This document shows positions 2,553-64,000 of a stretch of DNA of 64,000 bases, piece after piece. The DNA lies in assembly GCA_002421665.1 (NCBI GenBank), contig DISH01000005.1, positions 14,092 to 78,091 on the forward strand, in the 5' to 3' direction. The DNA comes from Candidatus Omnitrophica bacterium UBA6215. GTDB taxonomy: Bacteria; Omnitrophota; Gorgyraeia; Pluralincolimonadales; Pluralincolimonadaceae. A model generated the notes under the pieces. The model did no database searches. It saw only the letters and a list, made by a program, of their open reading frames with translations, and was not told the DNA's origin. How positions within the stretch are numbered: position 1 is the stretch's first letter; every line of letters starts with the position of its first letter. Both the position numbers and the translations under genes were made by a program.

Positions 2553-2600
2553 GTTATTTGCTTGACAAAATTGCTCAAATATAGTAAATTTTAGTGACAT

Positions 2601-3425: not shown

Positions 3426-3433
3426 AAGCAACA

Positions 3434-3468: not shown

Positions 3469-3502
3469 AACCTTAACTTAAAGCAGGACAAGGAGAAATA
3501 AT

Positions 3503-4802: not shown

Positions 4803-4805
4803 CAG

Positions 4806-7172: not shown

Positions 7173-7307
7173 ATAGTGGTTCATAAACACGTGTCGAAAA
7201 CTGCATGGGCAACTTCTGAATTACAAGCTCATTTAACCGGTTAACGAAAAAGTTTATTGTTCTTGAATAATAAACACGTTTCGAAAAATGGGAGCCAAGA
7301 AAGAACC

Positions 7308-7943: not shown

Positions 7944-7954
7944 GAAAGAGAAAG

Positions 7955-31135: not shown

Positions 31136-31153
31136 AGATAGCCAGGGGGATGT

Positions 31154-41288: not shown

Positions 41289-41316
41289 TTGACAAAACGA
41301 GCTCATGATATATAAT
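41289..41316 (+). promoter_or_regulatory. sigma70-type promoter TTGACA-16-TATAAT for the AraR-like regulator gene
   Basis: Consensus hexamers. A palindromic GAGTATAC element follows at 41323-41330. Confidence 0.45.
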
Positions 41317-41378
41317 ATAACCGAGTATACCAAGGTATATAATAACTGTTTTTTTGGACAAAAAAGGATGAGAAGAAT

Positions 41379-42482: not shown

Positions 42483-42500
42483 CAGGAAGGGGGGCGGAAG

Positions 42501-43085: not shown

Positions 43086-43120
43086 GGGACGCATTTGCTC
43101 CGCGAACAAGGAGAAATTGG

Positions 43121-43681
43121 ATGAAAAGAGCGGTTTTTTTCGCTATATTGACGGCAGTAATGCTGTTCATGTATGTCTCTGTACATGCAGAGGTATTTGA
43201 CAGTTTCGAGGGGGTCAATGATTGGGGCTTCGAGAGCTGGGATAACGTCGGCGGGGTCGCGCTGTCGATAAGCGCGGAGAAGGCTTCCGACGGCAAGCAG
43301 TCGCTAAAGGCAGTCGCCAAAGAAGAACAAGAGGACTGGAAGAACAGGTTTGTGTTATCCAGGGATGCCTCGCTGGACCTTTCCGGTTCGGATATGTATA
43401 TGGACATCTATACTGATGCTTCTTCCGGGATGTCGGTTGCCGTAGCATTCGATACCGGCGGGGAATATTATGAGTCCGAAGGCAAGATCCTCAACCAGGG
43501 TTGGAATAGGGACATAAAGTTCGACCTCTCTGCAAAAGATTTCAAGTGCAAGGCAAGCGACTGGAAAAATTCGGTTCCGTTAGCAGACAGGAGCGATATA
43601 AGCAAGGTCTTCGTACTTGTGCAGCATCCGAAGAAAATGAAGGGCGCTACGGTATTCATCGATAATATAAGGTTTAAGTGA
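43121..43681 (+). CDS. small secreted protein consisting of one uncharacterised CBM-like module (copy 2)
   Basis: Signal peptide. VFDSFEGVNDW, QSLK, NQGWNRDIKFDL, FKCKASDWK, FIDNIRFK. Confidence 0.7.
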   Translation: MKRAVFFAILTAVMLFMYVSVHAEVFDSFEGVNDWGFESWDNVGGVALSISAEKASDGKQSLKAVAKEEQEDWKNRFVLSRDASLDLSGSDMYMDIYTDASSGMSVAVAFDTGGEYYESEGKILNQGWNRDIKFDLSAKDFKCKASDWKNSVPLADRSDISKVFVLVQHPKKMKGATVFIDNIRFK

Positions 43682-43704
43682 GATACTAGGACCGGTCGGT
43701 CTCA

Positions 43705-46119: not shown

Positions 46120-46136
46120 AAAGACAAAAGGAAAAA

Positions 46137-49693: not shown

Positions 49694-49718
49694 AGGTACG
49701 GGAAAGGAGGCAGTAACG

Positions 49719-50303
49719 ATGGGCAGGTTAATGGCAGCAGCATTGCTGGTCGCGTCACTTCTTGCGTTGAGCAGTGTCCCTCACGCGGCTGAAACGGTGC
49801 TCTTCGGGTTCGAGGATGACACCGGGGGTTGGCGCGTCCCTGATTGGGCGCTTGAAAAAGAAGACCATGTAGCGAGGGACCTCTCCCTCTCTACCGATTG
49901 GGCTTCCGAAGGGAAGAAGTCCATGAAGGTCACTTCCGAGTTCCTCGGGGGCAAATGGTCGGGCGCGTATGTCGAGATAGAAGAATATTTCGACTGGTCG
50001 CCTTACAGCAAGCTTTTGGTCGATGTGTACATACCAAAAGATGCCCCGGCCGGGCTTAAAGGTAAGATAATCCTTACCGTAGGTGATGAGTGGAAATGGA
50101 CCGAGATGAGCAAGACCGTGCCGCTTACCCCGGGCCAAGTCACCACGATAACGGCCGATATAGCCCCGGGAAGCAAGGATTGGAAGAACACGATCGTCGA
50201 TGATAACTTCAGGAAAGATGTCCGGAAATTCGGTGTAAGGGCGGAAAACAACAGGACCGAGTGGAAGGGCGCCTATTATGTCGACAACATAAGGTTGGAA
50301 TAA
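49719..50303 (+). CDS. small secreted protein consisting of one uncharacterised CBM-like module (copy 3)
   Basis: Signal peptide. LFGFEDDTGGW, KSMK, KDWKN, YYVDNIRLE. Confidence 0.65.
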   Translation: MGRLMAAALLVASLLALSSVPHAAETVLFGFEDDTGGWRVPDWALEKEDHVARDLSLSTDWASEGKKSMKVTSEFLGGKWSGAYVEIEEYFDWSPYSKLLVDVYIPKDAPAGLKGKIILTVGDEWKWTEMSKTVPLTPGQVTTITADIAPGSKDWKNTIVDDNFRKDVRKFGVRAENNRTEWKGAYYVDNIRLE

Positions 50304-50313
50304 TGGCTGTTAC

Positions 50314-50351
50314 GCGGGGCCGCAAAAACCGGCCCCGCGCGACACCTTTTA
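50314..50351 (+). terminator. rho-independent terminator
   Basis: Perfect 9-bp GC stem GCGGGGCCG-CAAAAAC-CGGCCCCGC (50314-50338) followed by TTTTAT. Confidence 0.65.
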
Positions 50352-50371
50352 TAAGTCTTAAGGAGAGCAAG

Positions 50372-51553
50372 ATGTTTTTCAGGAGAAAGTTATTAATATT
50401 CATTCTGGTAGCAGCCGCGTTCCTGGCCGGCTACCTGGCCAGCGTAATGGCCCCGCGCGTGTCCTCGCAGAAGCCGGTCGAGACCAAGTTTGCTTTTGGC
50501 GCGGGAAAGAAGGTGTCCGGAGCTCCTCAGGAAGCAGCCGGTCCCTCAAGGGAGCAGGCCCCTGCGGCCGCGGCCCAGAAAAAAGTAGACAGGCCCCCTT
50601 TCCCTCAATTCCAGAAAGGGATGACCTATGTGACATGGGACAGGTCCGCGTACGGCAAAGGTTTTTCAGACATGTCCCTGGAAAAACTCGCCTCGATAGG
50701 CTGTGGTTATGTTGCCATAATAACCACCTGGTACCAGGGTGATTATAATATTACCCAGATAAAGCGGGGAGGCAGCACGCCTACCGATGAAAGCCTGATA
50801 CATGCAATAGAGTCGGCGCATAAAGCGGGCTTAAAGGTCATGCTTAAGCCGCACCTTGACCTTGTAAAAGGCGGCTGTTGGAGGGGGGAGATACAATTTG
50901 GCAACGATACCGATTGGGAAACATGGTTTGCCAGCTACGGGGATTTCATAACTCACTACGCTAAACTTGCGGAAGATAACGGTGTAGAGATATTCTGTAT
51001 CGGAGTGGAGCTTACGGTGCCCGCGGTAGAGAAGCCGGATATGTGGGTAACGAAAGTCATAGAGCCCGTGAGGAAAGTTTTTTCAGGCCCGATAACTTAT
51101 GCAGCGAACTGGAACGAGGAATACCAGAACGTTGAATTCTGGGATAAGCTCGATTATGCAGGTTTGGACGCCTATTTTCCTCTTTCTGATAAAGAAGACC
51201 CGTCGCTCGATGACTTGAGGCAGGGATGGAAACCCCATATGGAAGCTATCGAAACCTGGCAGAAGTTCATAAATAAGCCGGTCCTGCTTACCGAGGTAGG
51301 TTATAAGAGTTCAACGGGCACGGCCAGGACCCCGTGGGAGCACCAGCTCGGCAGGGAAGTGGATCTGAAACTGCAAAGCGATTGCTACACGGCTATGTTG
51401 GAAGCTTTTTGGGATAAACCCTGGTTTTATGGGATGTACTGGTGGTATTGGGGGACGAATGATAGAATGGGAGGCAGCACCGACCGCGGGTTCAATGTGC
51501 AGAACAAACCTGCGCAGGCCGTGGTCAGGGATTGGTACGCCAAAGGGCGCTAA
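50372..51553 (+). CDS. membrane-anchored/secreted GH-A clan TIM-barrel glycoside hydrolase (paralog of the 48158 catalytic domain)
   Basis: AGGAGA RBS before ATG 50372. N-terminal signal anchor. LLTEVGY, WDKLDYAGLDAYFP and YAANWNEEY motifs shared with the 48158 protein. The track ORF start 50261 is rejected. Confidence 0.65.
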   Translation: MFFRRKLLIFILVAAAFLAGYLASVMAPRVSSQKPVETKFAFGAGKKVSGAPQEAAGPSREQAPAAAAQKKVDRPPFPQFQKGMTYVTWDRSAYGKGFSDMSLEKLASIGCGYVAIITTWYQGDYNITQIKRGGSTPTDESLIHAIESAHKAGLKVMLKPHLDLVKGGCWRGEIQFGNDTDWETWFASYGDFITHYAKLAEDNGVEIFCIGVELTVPAVEKPDMWVTKVIEPVRKVFSGPITYAANWNEEYQNVEFWDKLDYAGLDAYFPLSDKEDPSLDDLRQGWKPHMEAIETWQKFINKPVLLTEVGYKSSTGTARTPWEHQLGREVDLKLQSDCYTAMLEAFWDKPWFYGMYWWYWGTNDRMGGSTDRGFNVQNKPAQAVVRDWYAKGR

Positions 51554-51568
51554 AAACAGGAGGATAAT

Positions 51569-52498
51569 ATGAGGTTTGTCTGCAAGAAATACGAAAAGAA
51601 CCCGATAATAACAAAAGAAGATATGCCTTACCCGTGCGAATGCGTATATAACGCGGGTGCGGCAAAGTACAAGAATAAATATATACTCTTGCTCAGGGTT
51701 CTTCTGCTTAACGGTAACTGCGTATTCGGGCTCGCCGAGAGCGATGACGGTTTCGATTTCAGGATCCACCCGAAACCGGTTATGGTCCCGGCGACTACAG
51801 GGCCTTTCGCCAGGTATGAGGAGAAGGGCATCGAAGACCCGCGTATCACCAAGATCGGGGACACCTATTATATCTTCTACAGCTGCTATTCAGGGCTCGG
51901 GATGAGGATAGGGCTCGCCAAGACCAAGGACTTCAGGAAATTCGACCGTATCGCCATGACGACCACCATAGATTATCGCAATTCGGTCCTGTTCCCGGAG
52001 AAGATCAACGGCAAATATTGCCGTTTCGAGCGCCCGAACGTGGGACGCCAGGGGATATGGGTCTCTTACTCTCCGGACCTGATACATTGGGGCGAGCAGG
52101 AGCATATAATGGCCCCTTACGGCAACCATATTTGGGAAGACCATAAGATCGGCGCCGGCGCTCCGCCTATCAAGACCAAGAAGGGCTGGCTGAGTATCTA
52201 CCACGGCGTTACCTGGACGATGGACGGAATGACTTACAGGCTTGGAGCAGCTATGCATGACCTGAAGAACCCGGCAAAGATCCTCGGGATAGCCGACCAA
52301 TTCATACTCAGCCCCGATGAGATCTTTGAAAGGGTGGGGTATGTCCATAACGTCGTTTTTACCTGCGGCGCAATACCCGAACCTGACGGGACGGTCAAGA
52401 TATATTACGGCGGTGCCGATACGGTAATGTGCGTTGCCGTTGCAAAAATAGAAGACCTTATAGATATAGCGCTTAAAGGCAAGAGGAAACCGCTATAA
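51569..52498 (+). CDS. GH130-family glycoside phosphorylase (beta-1,4-mannoside phosphorylase-like)
   Basis: 309 aa, no signal peptide. NPIITKEDMP...VYNAGAAKYKNKYILLLRV N-terminus and VVFTCGAIPEPDGTVKIYYGGADTVMCVAVAKIEDL C-terminus are characteristic of the five-bladed beta-propeller GH130 family. Confidence 0.75.
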   Translation: MRFVCKKYEKNPIITKEDMPYPCECVYNAGAAKYKNKYILLLRVLLLNGNCVFGLAESDDGFDFRIHPKPVMVPATTGPFARYEEKGIEDPRITKIGDTYYIFYSCYSGLGMRIGLAKTKDFRKFDRIAMTTTIDYRNSVLFPEKINGKYCRFERPNVGRQGIWVSYSPDLIHWGEQEHIMAPYGNHIWEDHKIGAGAPPIKTKKGWLSIYHGVTWTMDGMTYRLGAAMHDLKNPAKILGIADQFILSPDEIFERVGYVHNVVFTCGAIPEPDGTVKIYYGGADTVMCVAVAKIEDLIDIALKGKRKPL

Positions 52499-53397
52499 AA
52501 TATTATCTCGGGATTGACATAGGTGGCACGAACATCCGCCTGGGTGTCGTAGACGGCCGCGGCAAGGTACTGGCAAGATATCGGATGCCTACCTTGAGAA
52601 GGCAGGGAAGGGACAGGGTCATATCGAGACTGTTCGACGCCATAAAGGATATCGCGGCGTCGTATGACATAAAAGCGATAGGGATAGGTTGCCCCGGACC
52701 GCTTGACAGTAAAAAGGGGATAGTGCTCTCTCCTCCTAATCTGCCCGGCTGGCGCAACGTGCGGATAAAAGAGATGGTCGGCAAGAGGTTCCGCGTCCCG
52801 GCGGCGGTCGAGAACGATGCCAATTGCGCGGGGTTGGGGGAATCCGTTGCCGGCGCAGGGAAGCGCGCCTCGAGCATGGTCTTGCTTACTCTCGGCACTG
52901 GTATAGGCAGCGCAATAGTCCTGGAAGGGAGATTATGGACGGGTAAGGGAGGCTTTGCTTCCGAGTTGGGCCACGTATCGGTGGATATTAACGGTCCGAG
53001 ATGCGAATGCGGCAACAGGGGCTGCATAGAATTATATGCTTCGGCAACAGGAGTCGTCCGCCGCATGAAAAAGGCATCCTGGAGCAAGGCTGCCTTGACG
53101 GCTGAGGATGTATTTCGCAATGCCGGCAGAGGAGACAAGAAAGCGCGCAAGATAGTCGATGAGACGGCCTATTACCTTGGGTGCGCGCTTGCCAATATAG
53201 TTAACGCGCTGGACCCCGAGCTTATAGTGCTTGCCGGAGGAATGACAAGGGCCGGGCGCGGATTTGTGCGCAAAGCCGAACAAATAATGAGGAAGAGGGC
53301 TTTGAGGGAATCATCACGAGCAGTCAAAGTAACTGTCTCTAAACTTGGAGATGATGCCGGTTTGATCGGCGCCGCTTGGAGGGCGAAGGAGCTATGA
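52495..53397 (+). CDS. ROK-family sugar kinase with non-canonical start codon (or 5' disruption)
   Basis: The conserved ROK N-terminus YYLGIDIGGTNIRLGVVDGRGKVL (52501-52572) lies upstream of the first in-frame ATG (52585). The frame opens at 52477 with no ATG/GTG/TTG. In-frame ATA at 52495 sits 7 nt after an AGAGGA SD. ROK motifs ENDANCAGLGE and CECGNRGC (Zn) are present. The 5' boundary is uncertain. Confidence 0.6.
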   Translation: MKYYLGIDIGGTNIRLGVVDGRGKVLARYRMPTLRRQGRDRVISRLFDAIKDIAASYDIKAIGIGCPGPLDSKKGIVLSPPNLPGWRNVRIKEMVGKRFRVPAAVENDANCAGLGESVAGAGKRASSMVLLTLGTGIGSAIVLEGRLWTGKGGFASELGHVSVDINGPRCECGNRGCIELYASATGVVRRMKKASWSKAALTAEDVFRNAGRGDKKARKIVDETAYYLGCALANIVNALDPELIVLAGGMTRAGRGFVRKAEQIMRKRALRESSRAVKVTVSKLGDDAGLIGAAWRAKEL

Positions 53398-56267
53398 AAA
53401 GAATACTGTTAACCGTGTTCACTGGTGTTGTAGCATCGGTATTTTTGCAGGTCTTTGCGTTCTCTGCCGCGACGGAAGCGGTCCCGGCGGCAGGAGGGAC
53501 CGAAACCATCGTCTGGGACAGTCTTGAGTCGAAACACCTCTGGAGCATAGCCCAGTGGGGCGACGCCGCGAAACTGGCCGTAGCCCCTGACAATAAGACC
53601 GAGGGCGAAAAATGTTTCAAGGTGTCGTTCGGGCCGGAAGGCAAGCAGAACCCGCCGAAGGGCGTAGTCCTTGAGCGCGAGCAGTCGGCAATAGACCTCG
53701 ATACGTCCAAAAAACTTACCGTCGATGTATATAATGACGGCCCGCCTCTCGAGATGGCGCTTGTACTGTATACCGATGAATTCATAGAAAGCTCCACGGC
53801 GACCATAAAGAAAGGGTTGAACAAGGACATAACCTTCGACCTCCATGCCAAGGACTTCAAGAGTCCCACGAGTAAATGGCAGTATAATTATTCTCCTCGT
53901 CCCGGAACGATCGCGTGGCGCATAATGTTCATAATGTATACGGAAGACCCGGACATCAAAAGCACGGTATGTTTCGATAATATACGCCTTGAAAGGACGC
54001 CGAGGATAACCAGCGAACAGAAGATAATTGCCTTGGCCGATTACAAAGAGCCAAGGATAACCGCGGTAAAGACCGGCAATGAGAAAGTCGAGCAGTACGA
54101 GAAACTGGAGATCACCGTGGATTTCGAGGGAACCTACCAGTACCCCTATAATCCCGATAATATAGACCTGACGGCTTACTTTACGGCCCCTGACGGGAAA
54201 AAATATATCATGCCGGGCTTCCTTTATTCGGGGAAGGTGGACGGGGTCAACATCTCCGACGCGGTTTGGAAGGTGAGGTTCACGCCGGTGATAGCCGGGG
54301 AATGGGAATACTACGTAGAGGTCAGGAACCCGAAAGGCAAGGCGAAGTCGGAGAAATTTTCATTCGAATGCTTTGCCCCCGCATCGCCCAAGAAGGGTTT
54401 CGCGCGTATAAGCAGGAGAGACCCCTTATTTTTTGAGTTCGAGAACGGGGAGTATTATTATCCGATAGGCCAGAACGTGGCGTGGGCGCCGTCGGTGCAG
54501 ATGTTCGACCATTATTTCTCAAAGATGCACGAGAATATGTATAACTGGACGCGCGTCTGGATGTCAAGCTGGCAATGCGCGATAGAATGGCTGGATGTCG
54601 GGGATTACCACGGGCTTAACAACTATAACCTGAAGAACGCGAAATTGCTCGATGATATAACCGACCTGGCGAAGAAATACGACCTGTATTTCCAGCTTGT
54701 CCTTAACCAGCACGGGCAGTTGAGCACTAAGGTCGATCCCGAATGGCTCAATAACCCGTATAACAAGAAAAACGGCGGTCCATGCGAGAAGCCGGCTGAT
54801 TTCCTTACTGATCCCGAGGCGAAGAGGTTGTATAAGATGCGCATGCGTTATATAGTGGCCCGTTGGGGGTATTCTACCAACATACTCGCTTGGGAGCCGT
54901 GGAACGAGCTGACCCTCATGGACAACTATGACTCGAACCTGGATATCCCCTGGCAGAAAGAGATGGGCTGTTACCTGAATTCCATCGATCCTTACAGGCA
55001 CATGATAACGACCAGCTATTTCGGGAACTTCCCTAAGGAGATATGGAAACTGCCGGAGATAAGCTATGGGCAGATCCATATGTATACCCCGGAGATAGTT
55101 ACCACCCTGGACGGTCTTTACATGATAATGAAGGATTACAAGAAGGCCTATTTCGTCGGGGAATACGGCGGAAGCAACCTCAGCGGAATAGACATCCAGG
55201 ATCCCGATGCGACCGTCCACCACAACGGCATATGGGCTGCCTACATGACCGTGTCCTCCGGCGATGCCATGCCCTGGCAATGGGACGATTATATCGACCC
55301 GAGGAACCTGTATTTCCACTGGCGCGCACTTTCCAAGTTCAACGAGGGCGAGGACAGGCGCGGACAGAAATACCAGTACAGCCGCGGCACCATGGAGTTC
55401 GATGACGGGACCATATTGATGGCACAGGGCATAATGAACAACAATAAGGCCCTGGTATGGGTCTATGACCTTTATGCTACCAAGTTCAATCAGGGGGAGT
55501 TCAAGCCGCTTGACGTCAAGGGCGCCGTCCTGACCGTGGCGGGAATGGACAAAGGCGACTACAAGATAGAGTTCTGGGATACCTACAAGGGTATCGTGAC
55601 AGGCACGGCCGATACAAAATGCGACGGCAGGAAACTCGATATCCCGCTGCCTGAGATAAAGAAGGATATTGCGGTCAAGATCACGGCCTGCAATGAAAAT
55701 GCGCGCCCAAGGTCGGGCAAGATATACATTGAATCGAAATATGCAGAGAAAGACGTCCCTGAAGAACCGCGCAAACTTTGGGAAGGTTTTGAGGTACAGG
55801 GGGACTGGGATTACGCCGGCTGGGGCGATAAAGTGAAAGTATCTCTTGCCGGTAATAAGGTAACGGAAGGGAAAAAAGCGATCAAGGTTGTCTTCGACAA
55901 AGCGGGCAGGAGGACCGACGGGAAAGGTATCTGTGTCCAGAATACCAAGCTGAACCTTGACCTGTCGAAAGAGAAGAAGATGGTATTTGATGTCTATCTC
56001 GATGCGCCTAACTCCATAGAGGTATCGGTCGTACTTAACAGCAAAGGTTTCTGCGAAAGCGTGCGCAGGATCATAGTCCCCGGCTGGAACAGGAATATCA
56101 CTTTTGACCTTAAGGCAAGGACGTTCAAGAAAGAATCTACCAAGTGGCAACACAAAGGAGAGATAGACAGGGAAGAGCCGATGAAGGAAGTGATGTTCAT
56201 GTTCTACCCGTGGGATGTGGAATCGGGGAGCTTCTATATAGACAACGTAGGGTTCCTGAATAATTGA
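53394..56267 (+). CDS. secreted multidomain glycoside hydrolase: CBM-like module (copy 4) + DUF5060-like beta-sandwich + GH-A TIM barrel + CBM-like module (copy 5)
   Basis: ATG 53394 overlaps the ROK stop (ATGA) and follows a GAAGGAG SD. Signal peptide. N-module 53500-54000 (TIVWDSLESKHLW...GLNKDITFDL...CFDNIRLE). Central region is paralogous to 43705..46119 (WEPWNELT). C-module 55776-56264 (LWEGFEVQGDW...PGWNRNITFDL...YIDNVGFL). Confidence 0.7.
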   Translation: MKRILLTVFTGVVASVFLQVFAFSAATEAVPAAGGTETIVWDSLESKHLWSIAQWGDAAKLAVAPDNKTEGEKCFKVSFGPEGKQNPPKGVVLEREQSAIDLDTSKKLTVDVYNDGPPLEMALVLYTDEFIESSTATIKKGLNKDITFDLHAKDFKSPTSKWQYNYSPRPGTIAWRIMFIMYTEDPDIKSTVCFDNIRLERTPRITSEQKIIALADYKEPRITAVKTGNEKVEQYEKLEITVDFEGTYQYPYNPDNIDLTAYFTAPDGKKYIMPGFLYSGKVDGVNISDAVWKVRFTPVIAGEWEYYVEVRNPKGKAKSEKFSFECFAPASPKKGFARISRRDPLFFEFENGEYYYPIGQNVAWAPSVQMFDHYFSKMHENMYNWTRVWMSSWQCAIEWLDVGDYHGLNNYNLKNAKLLDDITDLAKKYDLYFQLVLNQHGQLSTKVDPEWLNNPYNKKNGGPCEKPADFLTDPEAKRLYKMRMRYIVARWGYSTNILAWEPWNELTLMDNYDSNLDIPWQKEMGCYLNSIDPYRHMITTSYFGNFPKEIWKLPEISYGQIHMYTPEIVTTLDGLYMIMKDYKKAYFVGEYGGSNLSGIDIQDPDATVHHNGIWAAYMTVSSGDAMPWQWDDYIDPRNLYFHWRALSKFNEGEDRRGQKYQYSRGTMEFDDGTILMAQGIMNNNKALVWVYDLYATKFNQGEFKPLDVKGAVLTVAGMDKGDYKIEFWDTYKGIVTGTADTKCDGRKLDIPLPEIKKDIAVKITACNENARPRSGKIYIESKYAEKDVPEEPRKLWEGFEVQGDWDYAGWGDKVKVSLAGNKVTEGKKAIKVVFDKAGRRTDGKGICVQNTKLNLDLSKEKKMVFDVYLDAPNSIEVSVVLNSKGFCESVRRIIVPGWNRNITFDLKARTFKKESTKWQHKGEIDREEPMKEVMFMFYPWDVESGSFYIDNVGFLNN

Positions 56268-56321: not shown

Positions 56322-56350
56322 TTGACAAAGGAATCTTAAAATGGTATTAT
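56322..56350 (+). promoter_or_regulatory. sigma70-type promoter TTGACA-17-TATTAT for the second PEP-CTERM gene pair
   Basis: Consensus hexamers in a 210-bp very AT-rich intergenic region. The ~130-nt leader carries two copies of the palindrome AGTATACT (56373-56380, 56440-56447). Confidence 0.5.
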
Positions 56351-56480
56351 TTCCCCGAAATAGTTATACCAGAGTATACTTGCCTTGTTATCTAATACTT
56401 AGTTAAACTTTATCCAAACATCTTTTGTTTTTATAACATAGTATACTCGGTTATACTAATCAGTGAAAGGGGGCGGTATA

Positions 56481-57110
56481 ATGGTAAAGAATTTTCTGGT
56501 AATAGCGGTTACAGTGATAGCGTCGCTGTCAATTTCCGTTGCGGCGCACGCTACTGTCCGGTTCGATTTTGCAGATTCAACCCAGGGTTGGGCTGCCGAG
56601 GATTGGGGTTACGGCCTTCCTGCTTTAGCGCAGGTAGGTTGGTCGAAGGACCCTGATACGGGGAGCCTCGAATCGAACAGTTCTTCCATGACATATACGC
56701 GCGCTGACAGCCAGAACTGGACAAAAGTGTACCTGAAAGGCGACTTCGCTTCCTCGCAAGACCTCACGTCGGAAGCTGTGTATACCATGGATCTCTATAT
56801 ACCCGATAACATTTATTTTGGTAAAGCGAAACTCGGGGTCAGGACGGGCAACTCATGGGACCTTTTTGAATCGGATGAGATCAGTTTGGAGCAGGGCTGG
56901 AACGGCCTGTCTTGGAACATGGGCGGTGTTTCGAATATTGCGGACGCCAGGCAGCTGGGGGTCGAGATATCGGGATGGTTCCCGGTCAGCGACGACGCGA
57001 AGTGGAATATCGATAACGTTGCCACTAATTCCGTGCCCGAGCCGGCAAGCATGTTTCTGCTGGGTGCGGGTCTCGCAGGTATCTTTACAATCAAAAAAGG
57101 AAGGAGGTGA
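56481..57110 (+). CDS. PEP-CTERM sorting-signal protein carrying the locus-specific CBM-like module (copy 6)
   Basis: Signal peptide MVKNFLVIAVTVIASLSISVAAHA. RFDFADSTQGW, EQGWNGLSWN, WNIDNV echo the module motifs. C-terminus SVPEPASMFLLGAGLAGIFTIKKGRR. Confidence 0.8.
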   Translation: MVKNFLVIAVTVIASLSISVAAHATVRFDFADSTQGWAAEDWGYGLPALAQVGWSKDPDTGSLESNSSSMTYTRADSQNWTKVYLKGDFASSQDLTSEAVYTMDLYIPDNIYFGKAKLGVRTGNSWDLFESDEISLEQGWNGLSWNMGGVSNIADARQLGVEISGWFPVSDDAKWNIDNVATNSVPEPASMFLLGAGLAGIFTIKKGRR

Positions 57111-57778
57111 AGACAATCATGACGAAGTATTTTATAGCTGTCACGGCTGTTTTGCTTATCGGACAGGCAGCATTCGGCGCGACTCTGTATGATTTTGAAA
57201 GCGGCACCCAGGGTTGGACATACCAGGATTATACGGACAGTCAGGCCATAACGGCTGCCGCGCAGTCCGGCACGCAGGCTAAGTCCGGTTCCTACTCGTT
57301 GATGGGGACCACCCACCTGGTGCCGGGTGACGTCAACTACAGCAAAGGCGAACTTCTTGTGACAAGGACGCAGGCCGACAAACTGGACCTGAACGGTCTT
57401 ACGACATCGGTATCCGTCTACGGGCCCACGGGAGCGGCAGGGACCAACCCCTCGTCTCCCAACGGCTGGCAGATGTTCTTTAAGGACGTCAACTACAAGG
57501 CATGGTACGGTCCGTGGACCAACATGGTCGAGAACAGCTGGACTACCCTCTCTTCAACAATAGGGACCACGACCCCGGCTTTTGTCGATTCGGGATTCGA
57601 CCCGACGCAGATCGTTACACTCGGTGTCAAGATCGGCACCGGCGGTTCTTCAACCGGTACCTATGACGGCGCTGTCTATGTCGATGATTACACGGTAGTC
57701 CCGGAACCGGCCAGCATGCTCCTTCTCGGCAGCGGTTTGATAGGCATACTTGGTTTTGCGAGAAAGAAGAGAGCGTAA
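57107..57778 (+). CDS. PEP-CTERM sorting-signal protein carrying a divergent copy of the CBM-like module (copy 7)
   Basis: Signal peptide. LYDFESGTQGW, PNGWQMFFKDV, VYVDDYTV. C-terminus VVPEPASMLLLGSGLIGILGFARKKRA. Overlaps the previous gene by 4 nt. Confidence 0.8.
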   Translation: MKTIMTKYFIAVTAVLLIGQAAFGATLYDFESGTQGWTYQDYTDSQAITAAAQSGTQAKSGSYSLMGTTHLVPGDVNYSKGELLVTRTQADKLDLNGLTTSVSVYGPTGAAGTNPSSPNGWQMFFKDVNYKAWYGPWTNMVENSWTTLSSTIGTTTPAFVDSGFDPTQIVTLGVKIGTGGSSTGTYDGAVYVDDYTVVPEPASMLLLGSGLIGILGFARKKRA

Positions 57779-57829: not shown

Positions 57830-60208
57830 ATGAGGAAAGTTGTAAAAGACTTGCTCCCTCACCCGAAAATAGCTTTAAGCACCCCCTTTTTTATCCGTTT
57901 CCGGCGCAGGGGTGGGGTGGCCCTCATACTGACCGTCGGGGTGCTGGCTTTGATAGCCCTGATAGGGACGTCTTTTGCCGTGAGCATGTTCGCGGATTAC
58001 AAAGCGGCAAAGAATTTCCATCACCTGGCCGATGCCCGCAATCTTGCCGAAGCTGGGGTAAACAGGGCGATAGCGGAGCTTCTATACGGGACCCAGGGGT
58101 TTGTATCGGATGCCGTAGATTCCTCTACAGAGACATGGGCAGGGACCGATCCGTTCTCCGCGAATATAGGCCCTGATAACAGCGGTTACGTGGTCAACAA
58201 GATATCTGACTGTGCCGGGCGGATCTACCTGAACGATACAAATCCCAACCTTAGGGTTATGCTTGGGAACCTGGCGTTCGCATGCGGGCTCGCTGTTTCA
58301 GACGGCCAGGCGATATTCGACAACCGTCCGGCAGCGGGATACTCCTCGCTCGAGGAGATAAAGATGGTCCCTGGTTTCGACGCGGCCAAGTATGCCGCGA
58401 TATCCGATTTCCTTACGACATATGCTTACATTGACGCGGACGTCTCATCAACGGCATATCCGTATTCCGCGGCACCCCGGGCGCCTGTTAATGTCAATAC
58501 GGCGTCAAGGGAAGTCCTCATCGCCGTTCTGTCGGGGATAAGCAATGGCGCAAATACAGTTTCGCAGGCAGAAGCGGCTTCTCTTGCCGGCCACCTTATC
58601 AACGGCCGGCCCTATTCAACTTATGACAACCTATGGGACAGGCTGCTGACGGCCGAAACGCTCGGATATATCTCAGACGGCGACGCAGCGGTGGTAATGG
58701 CTAATGCCAACCCGAACACCGATATGATGAGGTTCAACCCTAACTATTCGTGGAGGTATAAACACGTCTCAAAAGGAGATCCGTCCAATGCCTCGGGTTA
58801 TGACGGTAACGGTATGCCCTATGCGGTGGACAAGACATCGCTGACATCATATACGACGGAATTCTCGTTCAATTCAGGAGGTTATTACGAGATAATTTCG
58901 ACAGGCGTTGTCCGGAATACAGCGGGCGCGCAGCTGGCAACCAGGAGTATCCGCGCTTGCGTCAAGATTTTTGATATCTGGAGGCAGACTACCCAGGCGC
59001 AATTTGCCGCGGGTTTATCAAGCAATGTGTCATCGTACCCGGAGCCTACGGCAGTCACGGCAGCGTCTTATGACGGGCAAGTCATGCTGTCGTTCCTGCA
59101 TTCGTCCGAACCGGTAAGCGGCACTCCGCATTTCCTCCACAAGATGGCCTCGCTCGACGCTTTCAGCGCAGGAGGCAATCCTAACAGGTCCAGTTCTGCC
59201 TGGGTCCCCATGAATCCGAATGCAGCCAGTGTTATAGACGCTTCCGACCCAGGCAACCTTTATCCTGACGGGCTTTTCTTCCCGAGGGACGATACCGTTA
59301 CCAACTACTGGTTCTATCCGGAGAACAACATCGATTCAGCTGACGGGACGCTCGAAATATGGTTCAAGCCCAACTGGCAGTACCATTACGCAACGTTCAA
59401 CAATTCCTGGCATTCGGCCAAGGTCTTTGAGGCGCAGAACAGGGGGACGGGCGGGGGAGGCTTCAGCTGGTCGAATTCGTCCATGGACATATATATAGCA
59501 TCCGACGATGATACTATACGCTGGAGGATAAATAACAAGAACGGCACCCAGTATACCTGGCCGATGTCAATGCCCGTTACCTGGAAACCCGGGACATGGC
59601 ACCAGATAGCAGTAACGTGGGATTATGAAGATTATTCTGGAGACCCTGCGAGGGCCCAGGTATTCTATATCGACGGTATAGGCGCACCCGCGTGGAACAT
59701 AAAAGACGCCCCTAACCAGTTTCTCGGTGACAACGGGCTGGAATTCGGATGTGATACCCCTTACCAGGAACCGCCGAATGCCACTTACGGGGAGATCCGG
59801 ATATTCGCTTCAAGCACTGCCACGTCGCCGGGAATCGATTATGCCACAGGGGTCTATTATGATGTCGGTGACGCGAATTTTGTCTCTTCTTCGGAAACTA
59901 TAGGCGCGGCCAGGCTCGGCACGATATCATGGACGGAGCATATAGCCGATTCATCCGGCAACCCCGTAGTGCCCGGGGCCGACCTTACTTTCGATGTCTT
60001 TGACGGGACCAGCTGGCTCGGCAACAGCGCCGGAAGGTCAAACCCGTCCGGCAACCCACTCAACGTCATTACTGCGGGAGCGGGCGCCGTCCAATACAGG
60101 GTAAATTTCCTCGAGAACGGCAGCGGGCTTTTCGATACTCCGGTGCTGGACGACGTGACTATAACGTATACAAGAAAGGCGGAGATCCTTTACCGGAGGG
60201 ATATTTAA
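57830..60208 (+). CDS. GspK/PilX-like minor pseudopilin fused to a C-terminal LamG/ConA-like lectin domain
   Basis: N-terminal RRRGGVALILTVGVLALIALIGTSFA hydrophobic segment as in T2SS GspK. Two helix-hairpin-helix-like segments including PVNVNTASREVLIAVLSGI. C-terminal ~250 aa with LEIWFKPNW...WHQIAVTWDYEDY...AQVFYIDG resembling a laminin-G/concanavalin-A-like jelly roll. Confidence 0.55.
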   Translation: MRKVVKDLLPHPKIALSTPFFIRFRRRGGVALILTVGVLALIALIGTSFAVSMFADYKAAKNFHHLADARNLAEAGVNRAIAELLYGTQGFVSDAVDSSTETWAGTDPFSANIGPDNSGYVVNKISDCAGRIYLNDTNPNLRVMLGNLAFACGLAVSDGQAIFDNRPAAGYSSLEEIKMVPGFDAAKYAAISDFLTTYAYIDADVSSTAYPYSAAPRAPVNVNTASREVLIAVLSGISNGANTVSQAEAASLAGHLINGRPYSTYDNLWDRLLTAETLGYISDGDAAVVMANANPNTDMMRFNPNYSWRYKHVSKGDPSNASGYDGNGMPYAVDKTSLTSYTTEFSFNSGGYYEIISTGVVRNTAGAQLATRSIRACVKIFDIWRQTTQAQFAAGLSSNVSSYPEPTAVTAASYDGQVMLSFLHSSEPVSGTPHFLHKMASLDAFSAGGNPNRSSSAWVPMNPNAASVIDASDPGNLYPDGLFFPRDDTVTNYWFYPENNIDSADGTLEIWFKPNWQYHYATFNNSWHSAKVFEAQNRGTGGGGFSWSNSSMDIYIASDDDTIRWRINNKNGTQYTWPMSMPVTWKPGTWHQIAVTWDYEDYSGDPARAQVFYIDGIGAPAWNIKDAPNQFLGDNGLEFGCDTPYQEPPNATYGEIRIFASSTATSPGIDYATGVYYDVGDANFVSSSETIGAARLGTISWTEHIADSSGNPVVPGADLTFDVFDGTSWLGNSAGRSNPSGNPLNVITAGAGAVQYRVNFLENGSGLFDTPVLDDVTITYTRKAEILYRRDI

Positions 60209-61072
60209 ATGAAGATATGGGCGGCCCTGGCCGCCGTTATGCTGTTTATGTTCCCTGCACACGCGCAAGAGATGAAGGCGGAGGGCTACGGGAGGGCTGC
60301 AGCGTCCAAATATGAGCTCAGCGTCTCGGCAGAAGTAAGGAAACTTACCTCGGGGGACGCCGTTCTCGTAAAATACAAGACCAACCTGCCGCAGAAGACA
60401 GTGCTATACATGACCGTAAGGGCCCTCGGCCAGGTCCTTGTCACGCGCAAGCAGACGGTGGAAGGTCCGACCTTTGCTATAAGGTTCGGCCCGTTCGATG
60501 ACAAGAGTTTTGCGCCGGGTATATATGTTGTTGATGTCTCATGCCTGCCTTCCCGCCAGGAGAGCGCGTCGGTAAAGGAAGAGCTCGCAGGCATGGATGA
60601 TCTTGTCGCTTCCGCTGAGTTAAGGGTAGGGTCCCCGGAGGAATACGAAGTCACAACGCTCAGGCGCAAGGCCGAGCTCACCTCTGAGCTGGAAGACCTG
60701 GCGGCCTTGTATTCCGCGATAAACACCGAATACGTTTCCCAGAAGAAGGATTTTGACGGGGAGAGATGGGAAGCATTTTCCGCGTCGTGGAAGGAGAAGA
60801 TTGGCGCGATCCGGCAGAAAGACATCCAATACCGCGCCCGGATGCTCGTTATGGATTATGCGGCTCAGGAGAACATAAAGATGATGATGGTTGACACCCT
60901 TGATAAACTCTGGACCAGGTATATGGAAGACCTTTCACAGGAGAACGGCCTCGGTTTCAAGGCCCCGCCTTCACCGGACAACAGGCCTGCGGAGATGCTT
61001 AAAAGCGTTATGCAGGAATTGCTCGTCAACTCGGATAGTTTCGTCTTGACTTTTTCCAAGCAGAAAGATTAA
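60209..61072 (+). CDS. secreted hypothetical protein
   Basis: Signal peptide MKIWAALAAVMLFMFPAHAQ, 287 aa, no recognisable motif. Start codon abuts the previous stop. Confidence 0.45.
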   Translation: MKIWAALAAVMLFMFPAHAQEMKAEGYGRAAASKYELSVSAEVRKLTSGDAVLVKYKTNLPQKTVLYMTVRALGQVLVTRKQTVEGPTFAIRFGPFDDKSFAPGIYVVDVSCLPSRQESASVKEELAGMDDLVASAELRVGSPEEYEVTTLRRKAELTSELEDLAALYSAINTEYVSQKKDFDGERWEAFSASWKEKIGAIRQKDIQYRARMLVMDYAAQENIKMMMVDTLDKLWTRYMEDLSQENGLGFKAPPSPDNRPAEMLKSVMQELLVNSDSFVLTFSKQKD

Positions 61073-61081
61073 TATAAATCC

Positions 61082-62329
61082 ATGCATGGCCGGGATATAC
61101 CAATAGCGATCGCAAAGGCACTGGTCTTTTCTTTGATGATTTTTACCGTGTTTTGCCTTGCGGGCTGCGGCAAGGTCCCGGAAGAGAAGAAGATATTGAT
61201 GTGGCTGGTAGGTTCGGAGAAACAGGCCCAGAAGATAACGGAACTGGGCCTCGATTTTTATAAGCAGACCGGCGTTAAGGTCAGCTGCGAGGCCATATCG
61301 TGGGGCGAAGCGCATTCTAAATACCTTACCTCTGTCGTCGGAGAAGTAACGCCCGATATAGGCACTATGGGGTTGACCTGGGGTACGGAATTCGGGAATC
61401 TCGGGGCCATGGTGGACCTGAACAGGGAATTCCCGGACGATCTCAGCGAACTGACATCCAGCATCTTCCCGGGACTGGCGGGTTCCATACGATATAACGA
61501 CAGTATATTCGCGGTCCCGTTTGACATGAGCGAATATATAATGTTTTACAGGTGCGATATCATAAAGGAGCCTCCTCGCACATGGAAAGACCTTACCTCT
61601 CTGCTTTCCGAGCTTAATTCTTCCGGCAGATCCATGATAATAGACTGGGGCGGCATGGGATGGATAGGCTATTCCCCGTTCCTGTGGCAGAACGGCGGGG
61701 ATTATTACGACAAGGACATGACCTCCGCTACCTTAGACAGCGATAAGGCCCTTGAAGCGATGAAGTTCTTTACCAGCCTCTATAAGGCATATGAAGTCCC
61801 CGTGGAGAACAGGCCGGTCGAGCAAAGTTTCAAGATCGGGGAGTACCCTATTTTCATATCGGGTAACTGGAAGATGAAGAGCCTTTCAGATATAGCGCCG
61901 GAGCTCAAAGGCAAGTGGGCCATAGCAACGCTTCCCGCAGGTCCGACGGGCAAGAAGACGGGTTTTATCGGAGGCAGGGTCATGGGTATATTTTCCCTTT
62001 CGAAGCATAAGAAAGAAGCATGGGAATTTATAAAATACCTGTCGAGGCCGGATATACAGATAAAGCTTTACGAGGACACGCTTGAATCGCACGACACCTA
62101 TCTTCCGCCGAACATAAAGACCTGGAACTTATTGCCGATGGAAGATTCTTTCAAACGGCCTCTCCTGGATCAGGCGATGGACTCAAAGGGTCCGCCTTCG
62201 GTACTGGGCTGGGATGACAGCACAAGGTTCATAGACACGGCCATACAGATGGTGGTGCTTAAGAATAAGGATGCCGGCGCCGCCTTGAAAGATGCGGATA
62301 ACGAGCTCGAGAGGAGGATCAGGCGATGA
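61082..62329 (+). CDS. sugar ABC transporter substrate-binding lipoprotein (solute-binding protein family 1)
   Basis: Lipobox FCLAGCGK. 415 aa with the overall composition of the MalE/UgpB-type SBP fold. Confidence 0.75.
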   Translation: MHGRDIPIAIAKALVFSLMIFTVFCLAGCGKVPEEKKILMWLVGSEKQAQKITELGLDFYKQTGVKVSCEAISWGEAHSKYLTSVVGEVTPDIGTMGLTWGTEFGNLGAMVDLNREFPDDLSELTSSIFPGLAGSIRYNDSIFAVPFDMSEYIMFYRCDIIKEPPRTWKDLTSLLSELNSSGRSMIIDWGGMGWIGYSPFLWQNGGDYYDKDMTSATLDSDKALEAMKFFTSLYKAYEVPVENRPVEQSFKIGEYPIFISGNWKMKSLSDIAPELKGKWAIATLPAGPTGKKTGFIGGRVMGIFSLSKHKKEAWEFIKYLSRPDIQIKLYEDTLESHDTYLPPNIKTWNLLPMEDSFKRPLLDQAMDSKGPPSVLGWDDSTRFIDTAIQMVVLKNKDAGAALKDADNELERRIRR

Positions 62330-63228
62330 ACTCCGTATTAAAAGAGCTCAATAAGCAGAAATCGGCTTATATCTTTATCGCTCCGTCCTTTATAATATTT
62401 ACGGTTTTTTTGATAATACCCGTCTTTGCATCGCTTTATTGGAGCCTTACCGAATACAATATACTGCAGCCCCCGAAGTTCGTGGGTTTCCAGAACTATA
62501 TAAACATACTATTTCACGATCCCCGTTTCTGGAAGGCGATGGCCAATACCGTGATATTCGTTGCGGGCACAGTTCCTACCAGTATCGCAATATCGCTTCT
62601 CCTGGCCATAGCTATAGACCAGAATATAAGGTTCAAGAACTGGTTCAAGACATTTTTTTTCATACCGAGCATAACTTCCATAATAGCCATATCGGTGATA
62701 TGGAAGTGGCTCTATGCCAGCGGCAAATACGGGCTGTTTAACCACCTGCTGACCTCAATAGGCCTGCCTTCGGTCAACTGGCTGGGCGTCACCTGGACCC
62801 TGCCGTCGATAATCCTCATGAGCGTATGGGGAGGGCTCGGTTATAACATGATATTATTCCTGGCCGGCCTGCAAGGCATACCACATGTATTCTATGAAGC
62901 GGCTGAGGTCGATGGGGCAAGCGAATGGGACAAGTTCAGGAACGTTACGCTGCCTTTGCTGAGGCCTACCATGCTTTTTGTCACTATAATGTCCGTAATA
63001 AGCGCTTTCCAGGTATTCGAGCAGGTATATATAATGACATATAATTCCGAAGGCGCCGTTGGCGGGACCCTTGATTGCGCCCTGACCATAGTCGCGTACC
63101 TTTACGAGACCGGTTTCCAGAGGTTCTCGATGGGTTATGCTTCGGCCCTCGCTTACCTGATATTTTTCATATTGTTCATAGTGACCATAGTTAACATGAA
63201 GATCGTAGAAAAGAAGGTAGAGTATTGA
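62326..63228 (+). CDS. carbohydrate ABC transporter permease (MalF/UgpA-like)
   Basis: Six TM helices. EAA loop EAAEVDGASEWDKFRNVTLPLLRP. Confidence 0.85.
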   Translation: MNSVLKELNKQKSAYIFIAPSFIIFTVFLIIPVFASLYWSLTEYNILQPPKFVGFQNYINILFHDPRFWKAMANTVIFVAGTVPTSIAISLLLAIAIDQNIRFKNWFKTFFFIPSITSIIAISVIWKWLYASGKYGLFNHLLTSIGLPSVNWLGVTWTLPSIILMSVWGGLGYNMILFLAGLQGIPHVFYEAAEVDGASEWDKFRNVTLPLLRPTMLFVTIMSVISAFQVFEQVYIMTYNSEGAVGGTLDCALTIVAYLYETGFQRFSMGYASALAYLIFFILFIVTIVNMKIVEKKVEY

Positions 63229-63229
63229 C

Positions 63230-64000
63230 ATGGATATCGCTGAGATAAAAAGATTGGAGGCGGAGGGGCCGGGAAGGCCTGCCAGCAAGAAGAGACAGCA
63301 GCAGGTCCTTAAGGCCTTCGTCTATATCTTCCTTATGGTAGGATCATTTGTTATGATAGTGCCTTTTGTATGGATGATAGTAACATCGTTCAAGCCGCTC
63401 GAAGAGATAAATACTTATCCTCCGAGTTTCTTCATCAGGAAACCGACCATAGCCGCTTACATAGAGTTGTTCAGCATCATACCCATGGGAAGATATTTCC
63501 TTAACAGCCTGATAGTCACCTGCTCTATAACGCTTGCGAATATATTCTTCTGTTCACTTGCCGGATACGCTTTTGCCAAGCACCGTTTCTTCGGCCGCGA
63601 CAAGCTTTTCCTGCTTTTAGTCGGGTCAATGATGATACCCTGGCAGGTCAACCTTATACCAAGTTTTGTCATAGTAAAAAAATTCGGGTGGCTCAACTCT
63701 TTCTACGGCCTGATAATACCTGCTATGTCGGGCGCATTCGGCATCTTCCTGATGAGGCAATTCATTATGAACATACCGGATGACCTTATAGACGCCGCGA
63801 AGATAGACGGTTGCAGCGAATTCACCATATACAGGAGGGTGATCCTGCCGCTCATCCAGCCGGCCCTCGCCTCACTGGCGATTTTTACCTTTATGGGGCA
63901 ATGGAACAATTTTGTCTGGCCCTTGGTTATCGTATATTCGTCCAAGATGAGGACCATACCCATTGCGTTGTCGGTGCTCAACGGCCAGTTCGGGACGAAT
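63230..64000 (+). CDS. carbohydrate ABC transporter permease (MalG/UgpE-like), 3'-truncated by window end
   Basis: Not in the ORF track because there is no stop before the window end. ATG 63230 opens a frame encoding MDIAEIKRLEAEGPGRP...DAAKIDGCSEFTIYRRVILPLIQP (EAA loop) through nt 64000. Confidence 0.8.
   Translation, partial: MDIAEIKRLEAEGPGRPASKKRQQQVLKAFVYIFLMVGSFVMIVPFVWMIVTSFKPLEEINTYPPSFFIRKPTIAAYIELFSIIPMGRYFLNSLIVTCSITLANIFFCSLAGYAFAKHRFFGRDKLFLLLVGSMMIPWQVNLIPSFVIVKKFGWLNSFYGLIIPAMSGAFGIFLMRQFIMNIPDDLIDAAKIDGCSEFTIYRRVILPLIQPALASLAIFTFMGQWNNFVWPLVIVYSSKMRTIPIALSVLNGQFGTN

Follow-up and report, generated by a model that had tools for sequence, protein, structure and literature searches.

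The 64,000-nucleotide stretch of DNA analysed here (contig DISH01000005.1 of Candidatus Omnitrophica bacterium UBA6215; the window, below) carries a beta-mannan utilisation locus in which two adjacent genes, PEP1 and PEP2, encode small proteins with a predicted signal peptide, one domain resembling carbohydrate-binding modules (CBMs) and a PEP-CTERM sorting tail. The gene structures, the tails, the domain and fold class, the synteny with a sugar importer, a shared and conserved operator and a genomic link to an exosortase were observed. From these we infer sugar binding, the ligand, processing by the exosortase, the compartment and which regulator binds the operator, and on balance we think that PEP1 and PEP2 are processed by the exosortase, attached to the cell envelope and used there for capturing beta-mannan, glucomannan or oligosaccharides for the importer. 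Glycan capture at the envelope is, as judged from sequence, a plausible use of PEP-CTERM sorting. The role of PEP-CTERM/exosortase clients has been open since 2006, most of them being without a recognisable passenger, and the window provides a concrete and testable hypothesis for it.

Gene structure and tails of PEP1 and PEP2

56481 to 57110, + strand: PEP1, 209 amino acids (aa); signal peptide, predicted Mann_GBD/CBM59-like beta-sandwich, PEP-CTERM tail VPEPASMFLLGAGLAGIFTIKKGRR
57119 to 57778, + strand: PEP2, 219 aa; signal peptide, predicted divergent Mann_GBD-like beta-sandwich, PEP-CTERM tail VPEPASMLLLGSGLIGILGFARKKRA

The original prediction, made from the letters of the window, placed two PEP-CTERM genes directly downstream of hydrolase genes, and this was borne out, as both open reading frames exist and their tails score above curated thresholds (PF07589, 29.4 bits for PEP1 and 29.9 for PEP2 against a cutoff of 20.7; TIGR02595, 23.3 and 24.4 bits against 16). 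In each protein a hydrophobic signal peptide is followed by a single domain (about 160 aa) and then by the tail, which has the pattern VPEPASM(F/L)LLG(A/S)GL.GI...(K/R)n, with Pro-Glu-Pro, a hydrophobic helix and a basic C-terminal cluster. The ends of the signal peptides were placed by inspection only, between AHA and TV in PEP1 and between AFG and AT in PEP2; there is no lipobox in either protein, and by inspection both signal peptides are of type I. The two genes are spaced by 8 nt and a GGGGG Shine-Dalgarno sequence lies just 5′ of the PEP1 ATG. The start of PEP2 had been given as GTG 57107, which overlaps the GGAGG Shine-Dalgarno site at 57101-57106; because of this site and of other, independent gene calls that also give 219 aa, it was replaced by ATG 57119, most probably the true start.

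In 19 PEP1 orthologues, down to 41% identity, the P-E-P, S190, G197 and G200 of the tail are invariant, which shows that the tail is under selection. The window has four PEP-CTERM genes (n=4), PEP1 and PEP2 here and PEP3 and PEP4 beside the exosortase gene, all sharing the same tail flavour. The four tagged proteins contain 0-1 Cys, 21-26% Ser+Thr+Asn (S+T+N) and 5-7% Lys+Arg (K+R), with 16-17% S+T+N and 12-16% K+R in the untagged proteins of the same module type in the window, and so they fit the S/T/N-rich, Cys-poor composition profile described for PEP-CTERM proteins (Haft 2006, PMC1569441).

This composition bears on where the proteins are placed. It is possible, though we consider it unlikely, that the tail simply tethers the CBM to the inner membrane, on its outer face, where it would concentrate imported oligosaccharides for the lipoprotein substrate-binding protein with no display beyond the outer membrane. 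The host is a diderm, since the window encodes a TolC-like protein, along with an RND pump; the importer is an inner-membrane ATP-binding cassette (ABC) system whose substrate-binding protein has a lipobox, and we know of no outer-membrane translocation route for PEP-CTERM proteins. These points favour such inner-membrane holders, whereas the S/T/N-rich, Cys-free and low-basic composition resembles surface proteins, and a soluble role, periplasmic or secreted, is already filled by three untagged paralogues of the locus.

Family and fold of the passenger domains

The presence of CBM-like passenger domains in PEP1 and PEP2 is well supported by profile searches and by structure models. PEP1 matches PF21253 (Mann_GBD_bact, "Mannanase, galactose-binding domain-like"; modules of this type are called GBDs below) with 30.4 bits against a gathering threshold of 27. 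PEP2 reaches 22.2 bits, which is under the threshold of 27, and many of its orthologues do carry a PF21253 match; the alignment of the PEP1 and PEP2 family profiles covers both in full (hhalign probability 99.6%, E 4.5e-25). A profile of the 19 PEP1 orthologues found a single solved match among the sequences of the PDB, the CBM59 of 1WKY (E 6e-10), 1WKY being a Bacillus mannanase whose module is classified as CBM59 (PMC8952944). The AlphaFold2 models are all-beta with a mean pLDDT of 78.4 for PEP1 and 83.0 for PEP2, and Foldseek against the PDB gives 1WKY as the best match of both (E 2e-8 and 2e-9), followed by CBM27, CBM11, CBM28, CBM22, CBM4 and CBM16. The PEP2 model also matches the Bacteroides surface glycan-binding protein (SGBP) SGBP-B (7k44) with E 3.6e-4. 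Within the PEP1 family the Trp residues W37, W42, W80, W126, W140 and W145 are conserved; across the merged family W37 and W140 alone persist among them.

The passengers had been described as copies of a locus-specific CBM-like module. The CBM-like fold stands, but neither the copying nor the specificity to the locus does. In pairwise phmmer comparisons with tails removed, PEP1 (its signal peptide also removed) is related to the stand-alone GBD at 49719 with E ~3e-6 and weakly to that at 43121 (E ~1e-3), and PEP2 gives no more than marginal pairwise matches. Neither protein is similar by pairwise phmmer to the modules on the 957-963-aa enzyme of the locus, and the N- and C-terminal modules of this enzyme form a tight subgroup with the GBDs at 42501 and 43121. 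The passengers are therefore distant relatives and not copies. A family profile search of 1.84 billion cluster representatives returned 12,999 with E<=1e-3, of which 685 have E<=1e-10; many of the representatives found are multi-copy giant proteins.

PEP-CTERM tails were present in 52 of the 139 family members recovered by word-indexed searches. Of the 147 top-ranking distinct cluster representatives (50% identity) of the family, 13 have PEP-CTERM tails and 11 have lipobox-like N-termini. The tagged, lipobox-bearing and untagged members show that the same module occurs free, lipid-anchored or exosortase-tagged. Four GBD-family members (P0131, P0134, P0136 and P0139) have lipoprotein signal peptides (e.g. 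...GCGKK) and no PEP-CTERM tail. Some untagged relatives are named "glycan-binding surface protein" by NCBI; no NCBIfam model matched the stand-alone GBDs or the relative with this name. Cluster look-ups of the PEP-tagged representatives added hardly any taxonomy.

Promoter, operators and regulator

41289 to 41342, + strand: predicted regulator promoter TTGACA-16-TATAAT (12/12 consensus), then the abutting operator TATAACCGAGTATACCAAGGTATATAA
41379 to 42482, + strand: AraR-type regulator, GntR helix-turn-helix with LacI-type sugar-binding domain (PF00392 + PF13377/PF00532)
56322 to 56350, + strand: predicted sigma-70-type promoter TTGACA-17-TGgTATTAT, extended -10 TG, 11/12 matches
56364 to 56379, no strand assigned: operator-like palindrome O1, TTATACCAGAGTATAC, just 3′ of the -10 element
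56431 to 56456, no strand assigned: operator-like site O2, overlapping palindromes TATAACATAGTATAC and GTATACTCGGTTATA(C)

A gap of 213 nt lies 5′ of PEP1 and is the sole intergenic gap of more than 90 nt between 41.4 and 63.2 kb. The PEP genes had been proposed to share a promoter with palindromic sites that match one at the AraR-like regulator gene, and this was confirmed, as an identical 15-mer is found at both places and recurs in orthologous loci. The reverse complement of O2 holds the 15-mer TATAACCGAGTATAC of the regulator promoter, of which there are exactly two copies in 64 kb, at 41316 (+) and at 56441-56455 (-), 15 kb from each other; by simple calculation, chance would yield such an exact match about 1e-4 times in the 128 kb that the two strands make up. 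Copies with two mismatches lie at 56365 and 56432, and with up to 3 mismatches allowed 5 matches were observed against about 1 in shuffles. A looser operator pattern gave intragenic, chance-level matches only across the window. The regulator gene has the architecture of the AraR type together with a predicted autoregulatory operator at its own promoter.

The PEP1 promoter is conserved in three related loci (L007, L009 and L011). The positions of O1 and O2 are kept in L007 (PEP1 about 70% identical) and in L009 (49%), and O1 is unchanged in L007 and has a single-base difference in L009 (GTATACCAGAGTATAC). The O2 core GTATACTCGGTTATA is also kept 5′ of the cassette in L011 (41% identity; operator region 9234-9470), in which the cassette goes with enzymes of glycoside hydrolase (GH) families GH94 and GH116 (1339-5905), and this suggests that the inducer may be a sugar common to both pathways.

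Conservation of the arrangement

A scan of a genome collection for the family, made with a narrow pattern, returned 7 loci, of which 6 are labelled Omnitrophota. The whole arrangement is conserved in loci L007, L013, L017 and L019 of Omnitrophota metagenome-assembled genomes (MAGs), at about 70% PEP1 identity. In L018 (44% identity) both PEP genes lie 3′ of the same enzymes and the contig ends after PEP2. In L011/L012 (41% identity) there follow one another an extra untagged GBD, PEP1, PEP2, a 797-aa GspK-like protein (40% identical in L011 to the window copy), the substrate-binding protein and the permeases, and the upstream enzymes are GH94, GH116 and oxidoreductases instead of mannanases. 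Mannanases thus accompany the cassette in the window, L007, L013, L017, L018 and L019, and GH94/GH116 in L011.

A search of related genomes for the arrangement had been suggested with the original prediction, and the synteny of PEP1-PEP2, the GspK-like gene and the importer is indeed found at both ~70% and 41% identity. As the cassette moves with the importer while the enzymes change, an uptake or capture role is indicated and not a chance insertion. The synteny with the importer and the shared operator together tie the PEP genes functionally to glycan uptake.

In L009 (10721-20215) PEP1 is followed by a 3,164-aa protein with Mann_GBD, GH5 mannosidase, DUF5060 and CarboxypepD_reg domains, a giant protein of the kind that Omnitrophota are reported to have.

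Exosortase locus

5648 to 7113 (5648-6481; 6463-7113), + strand: exosortase, with DPCSGLRS motif, and EpsI
7257 to 8581, + strand: PEP3 and PEP4, PEP-CTERM proteins of ~210 aa each with a shared VPEPASLLLLGSGL tail; CBM_4_9 similarity sub-threshold

The exosortase/EpsI pair that had been recognised upstream in the same window is real, both members being above family thresholds at 5648-7113 (exosortase, TIGR02602 154.6 bits against 105.55 and TIGR04178 66.1 against 23; EpsI, TIGR02914 88.9 against 42.8). The exosortase reaches no named subtype, and its XrtA score is 174.8 bits against a cutoff of 208. The genes from 0.3 to 8.6 kb encode a glycosyltransferase (GT) of family GT1, a WecA-like GT4, an AraC/PocR regulator, a PilZ protein, a 282-aa membrane protein, a tetratricopeptide-repeat (TPR) protein, the exosortase, EpsI and the two PEP-CTERM proteins. 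PEP3 and PEP4 had been called CBM-type; they are PEP-CTERM proteins, but their CBM nature depends on sub-threshold matches only, since they and their orthologues give CBM_4_9 and CBM_11 matches in Pfam that are all sub-threshold, and essentially their tail alone aligns with the merged GBD profile by hhalign.

L049, a 2-Mb contig of a more distant relative, has the orthologous GT4, 282-aa membrane protein, TPR, exosortase and EpsI genes in the same order. Directly after EpsI there is a 208-aa Mann_GBD PEP-CTERM protein, a full-length homologue of PEP1/PEP2 (E ~1e-19), and then come a PEP4 orthologue, a LacI regulator, a PEP3 orthologue and two further PEP-CTERM proteins. In all, five PEP-CTERM proteins of ~205 aa are encoded at 7581-15255 of L049, one of them of the Mann_GBD type and the others with sub-threshold CBM_4_9/CBM_11 matches. 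This arrangement speaks for the exosortase at 5648 being the cognate enzyme, and it also shows that the GBD family is not confined to loci of carbohydrate-active enzymes (CAZymes). The exosortase clients seen in the lineage suggest that all of them are small single CBM-like domains.

The same locus raises an alternative which we judge possible but much less probable than capture for the importer, namely that PEP1 and PEP2 are matrix or adhesion lectins which bind the cell's own exopolysaccharide (EPS) or glue the cell to plant particles, as in the classical EPS/biofilm role, and that their placement in the mannan locus merely times matrix building to the presence of substrate. The GT1, WecA-like GT4, PilZ and TPR genes at the exosortase locus fit this, as does L049, where the PEP1/PEP2 homologue and four CBM-like PEP-CTERM proteins flank exosortase and glycosyltransferase genes and not CAZymes; PEP-CTERM proteins were linked to EPS by Haft 2006 (PMC1569441). 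Against it stand the tight synteny of PEP1/PEP2 with the ABC importer in 3 of the 4 lineages examined (the L009 lineage having PEP1 alone), the catabolic operator in which PEP1 and PEP2 share, and a mannanase CBM as their closest structural relative.

An AraC/PocR-type regulator and a PilZ-domain protein are encoded just 5′ of the exosortase block (2601-3967). They hint at a separate control of the sorting machinery, possibly by cyclic di-GMP.

Enzyme operon and cassette operon

42501 to 43681 (42501-43085, 43121-43681), + strand: two secreted stand-alone GBDs, close relatives of the modules of the 957-963-aa enzyme
43705 to 49693, + strand: three enzymes, a secreted DUF5060-GH5-CBM9, a GH35-like/GLMA protein without signal peptide and a secreted F5/8C-GH113
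49719 to 50303, + strand: secreted stand-alone Mann_GBD (PF21253, 39 bits), the closest relative of PEP1 in the locus
50372 to 56267, + strand: GH113, GH130 phosphorylase, ROK kinase and secreted 957-963-aa GBD-DUF5060-GH-GBD enzyme
57830 to 60208, + strand: GspK/PilX-like minor pseudopilin, 792 aa; N-terminus RRGG followed by VALILTVGVLAL, no Glu5; INVNTA helix-hairpin-helix; Laminin_G_3 (ConA-like lectin)
60209 to 61072, + strand: secreted 287-aa protein, no family match, recurrent partner of GspK-like genes
61082 to 62329, + strand: sugar ABC substrate-binding protein, lipobox LAG followed by C
62326 to 64000, + strand: ABC permease 1 (62326-63228), then the beginning of permease 2, cut off by the window end

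Every gene of the beta-mannan utilisation locus (41.3-64 kb) is on the + strand. The enzyme operon extends from 41379 to 56267, and a second operon runs from the PEP1 promoter through PEP1, PEP2, the GspK-like/LamG gene, the gene of the 287-aa secreted protein, the substrate-binding protein and the two permeases, with gaps of -4 to 51 nt inside it and no terminator predicted after PEP2 in the stretch scanned up to 58100. Beyond the 3′ end of the window lie a LacI regulator and then a 1,529-aa GH2. Neither 41.4-64 kb nor the 10-kb flanks of the related loci contained a SusC-like TonB-dependent transporter or a SusD-like protein.

For the second GH113 the mechanical open reading frame begins at GTG 50261, in overlap with the gene before it; other gene callers start it ~37 codons later (MFFRRKLL...), with a membrane-anchor-like helix at the start.

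The locus contains seven GBD-type modules, two of which flank a single enzyme. With so many beta-sandwiches it may be asked if PEP1 and PEP2 bind no sugar at all and instead act as protein-protein scaffolds that dock the 957-963-aa enzyme, the stand-alone GBDs or the GspK-like pseudopilin to the envelope, as a minimal cohesin-type anchor. The PEP pair does always lie 5′ of the GspK-like gene, except in L009 (no GspK-like gene) and L018 (contig ends); nevertheless there is no evidence of homotypic interaction of GBDs and the nearest solved relatives are all carbohydrate binders, and we regard scaffolding as very improbable.

Proposed mechanism

In the presence of the inducing sugar the AraR-type repressor (41379) would come off the shared operator, and transcription of both operons would follow. 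The secreted GH5, GH113 and GH5-like enzymes, along with free and enzyme-borne GBDs, would cut mannan or glucomannan. PEP1 and PEP2 would be exported by Sec, retained by the C-terminal helix, processed by the exosortase at 5648 and attached to the envelope, by analogy with sortases and archaeosortases, the only systems for which envelope attachment after tail processing is established. At the envelope they would hold the polymer or the released oligosaccharides near the cell against loss by diffusion, and the lipoprotein substrate-binding protein and the CUT1 permeases would import the oligosaccharides. In the cytoplasm GH130, the GH35-like protein, GH2 and the ROK kinase may complete the catabolism.

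Several points weigh against this capture model. The host is uncultured and the whole account is inferential, resting on sequence and models. What becomes of bacterial PEP-CTERM proteins once an exosortase has acted on them is, to our knowledge, not established, and in a diderm PEP1 and PEP2 could stay at the inner membrane. W37, G61, G160, D178 and the FE..GW / IDN motifs, which are conserved throughout the merged family, look structural, and the mannan specificity of PEP1 and PEP2 is a guess from gene context. With GH94/GH116 beside the L011 cassette and the same operator core before it, the ligand and the inducer may not be mannan-specific. L009 (49% identity) keeps PEP1 alone, without pseudopilin or ABC genes after it. 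A motif scan of the window found the operator motif absent from the exosortase locus, and the family member at the exosortase/glycosyltransferase locus of L049 fits the classical EPS-associated role as well.

GspK-like pseudopilin and its partner

A GspK-like pseudopilin-lectin fusion and a sugar ABC importer were said to follow the PEP genes directly. Both are there, but the 792-aa protein misses the cutoff of the GspK equivalog NF037980 (37.9 bits against 130). Pfam T2SSK gives 27.1 bits against 24.2, but no single stretch passes, and a search of the PDB by sequence gave no match. The label "GspK/PilX-like" is accordingly taken from the N-terminal motif, the INVNTA region and the paralogues downstream of GspH/I/J-like genes, and it is used as a putative one.

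The GspK-like/LamG gene and the gene of the 287-aa protein occur repeatedly as a pair. Paralogous clusters (L028-L035) at 29-36% identity were detected by a metagenome scan; in them GspH/I/J-like pseudopilin genes precede 2-3 sets in tandem, each made up of a GspK-like gene (~1,000 aa) and 1-2 partners (~375 aa). Compared with these, the pair in the mannan locus resembles a satellite of tip pseudopilin and partner under sugar control, and the arrays suggest, very tentatively, exchangeable lectin tips for a fibre of the type II secretion system/type IV pilus (T2SS/T4P) type. The genes 3′ of the paralogous arrays were considered as secretion machinery and this was ruled out, because they are housekeeping genes (EF-G, YebC, RuvAB).

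A bolder extension, which we put forward as speculative and improbable, is a three-part glycan capture operon of a non-Sus kind, regulated by the substrate, with a coat of small CBM lectins installed by the exosortase, an interchangeable, substrate-specific LamG tip pseudopilin with its 287-aa partner, and the ABC importer. The tip would sit on a T2SS/T4P-type fibre, with a core minor-pilin operon elsewhere carrying alternative tip/partner arrays. If this were true, the exosortase clients of the lineage would all be lectins and PEP-CTERM sorting in the phylum would serve mainly nutrient acquisition and not biofilm. The lectin pseudopilin of the GspK-like type and its partner turn up together repeatedly, and both merit a study of their own.

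In L028 (1128-2240) a 371-aa PEP-CTERM protein with IYGNxVVWxDxR repeats is encoded between GspJ-like and GspK-like genes, and this is a second instance of a PEP-CTERM gene adjoining a GspK-like gene.

Comparison with known systems

Cell-attached CBM-bearing proteins near an ABC importer are the established logic of Gram-positive mannan loci, as in the mannan utilisation locus of Roseburia intestinalis (PMC6385246). The window shares with it an extracellular endo-mannanase, a CUT1 importer with substrate-binding protein, cytoplasmic GH130 and GH113 and a LacI/GntR-type regulator, and probably also a beta-sandwich mannan CBM held at the cell, which is of the CBM27 type in Roseburia. Unlike in Roseburia, the CBMs of the window are separate ~210-aa proteins and not enzyme modules, the anchor is PEP-CTERM/exosortase in a diderm in place of Ig-like or Pro-Gly-rich cell-wall-binding regions, and the operon contains a GspK-like lectin pseudopilin.

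The likeness to Sus/SGBP-mediated capture which the original prediction had drawn holds as a functional analogy, but there is neither a SusC/D pair nor a lipoprotein anchor. Like SGBP-A/B of Bacteroidota, PEP1 and PEP2 are predicted non-catalytic glycan binders encoded in, and apparently co-regulated with, a polysaccharide locus, and a remote similarity exists between a stand-alone GBD and PF18329 SGBP_B_XBD (E 2e-4, below threshold). Unlike the SGBPs they do not have a lipoprotein anchor, and unlike a Sus-like polysaccharide utilisation locus the window has no SusC/SusD pair and no TonB-dependent transporter, with ABC import instead. As a concept, the proposed capture by PEP1 and PEP2 would be an exosortase-based equivalent both of the SGBPs and of the CBMs held at the cell in Gram-positive mannan loci.

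The PEP-CTERM/exosortase system of Haft 2006 (PMC1569441) agrees with the window in the tail, the several paralogues, the exosortase with EpsI and the S/T/N-rich, Cys-poor composition. Classical PEP-CTERM proteins differ in being without a recognisable passenger and tied to EPS loci and sigma-54 regulation, whereas those of the window have single CBM-like passengers, two of them under a sugar-catabolic operator and a sigma-70 promoter. For both passengers the best sequence and fold matches are the CBM59 of GH5_8 mannanases (1WKY) and CBM27, from which they differ in an identity of just 19-21% and in being stand-alone and tail-anchored, not appended to a catalytic domain. PepA of Zoogloea is reportedly a PEP-CTERM flocculation protein.

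The tapirins of Caldicellulosiruptor (bioRxiv 10.1101/359786, 10.1101/614800) are non-catalytic polysaccharide binders that are encoded beside pilus genes and respond to polysaccharide, and PEP1 and PEP2 likewise lie beside a GspK-like/LamG gene. The tapirins are of unrelated fold, in a Gram-positive host, without exosortase and next to a complete pilus locus; the window has only a tip-type pseudopilin and its partner.

Full-text searches of the literature found no description of PEP-CTERM-tagged CBMs in a polysaccharide utilisation locus and no paper on an exosortase in Omnitrophota. The sole related report found, a genome announcement (PMC7409859), includes a PEP-CTERM protein in its dbCAN hits for a Microbulbifer cellulase cluster. 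The claim that a nutritional role of PEP-CTERM proteins would be new therefore stands in that no such system was found in the literature, but it was somewhat overstated, since PEP-CTERM is a generic sorting tag and there is precedent for cell-anchored CBMs accompanied by an ABC importer (PMC6385246). The results also show how some Omnitrophota may take up plant hemicellulose without Sus-type machinery. Omnitrophota are mostly discussed as predators or parasites.

Setting of the locus in the window

The window is composed of three blocks, the exosortase/glycosyltransferase block (0.3-8.6 kb), a block of housekeeping genes plus an RND/TolC efflux system (8.7-41 kb) and the beta-mannan utilisation block (41.3-64 kb). 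A protein identical to PEP1 is found on contigs of JGI metagenome 3300001592, in MAG GCA_964484255.1 and in several Logan assemblies, and the homologues that have names are proteins of Omnitrophota MAGs. Anaerobic digester and sludge samples in which the contig occurs, among them JGI 3300001592 and the SRR13427964 series, are candidate sources. At 29921-31750, isolated between housekeeping genes and the RND efflux operon, a 404-aa protein with a GspG-type prepilin N-terminus (MSRKKGVTFVEILLAL...) is encoded next to a 198-aa lipoprotein.

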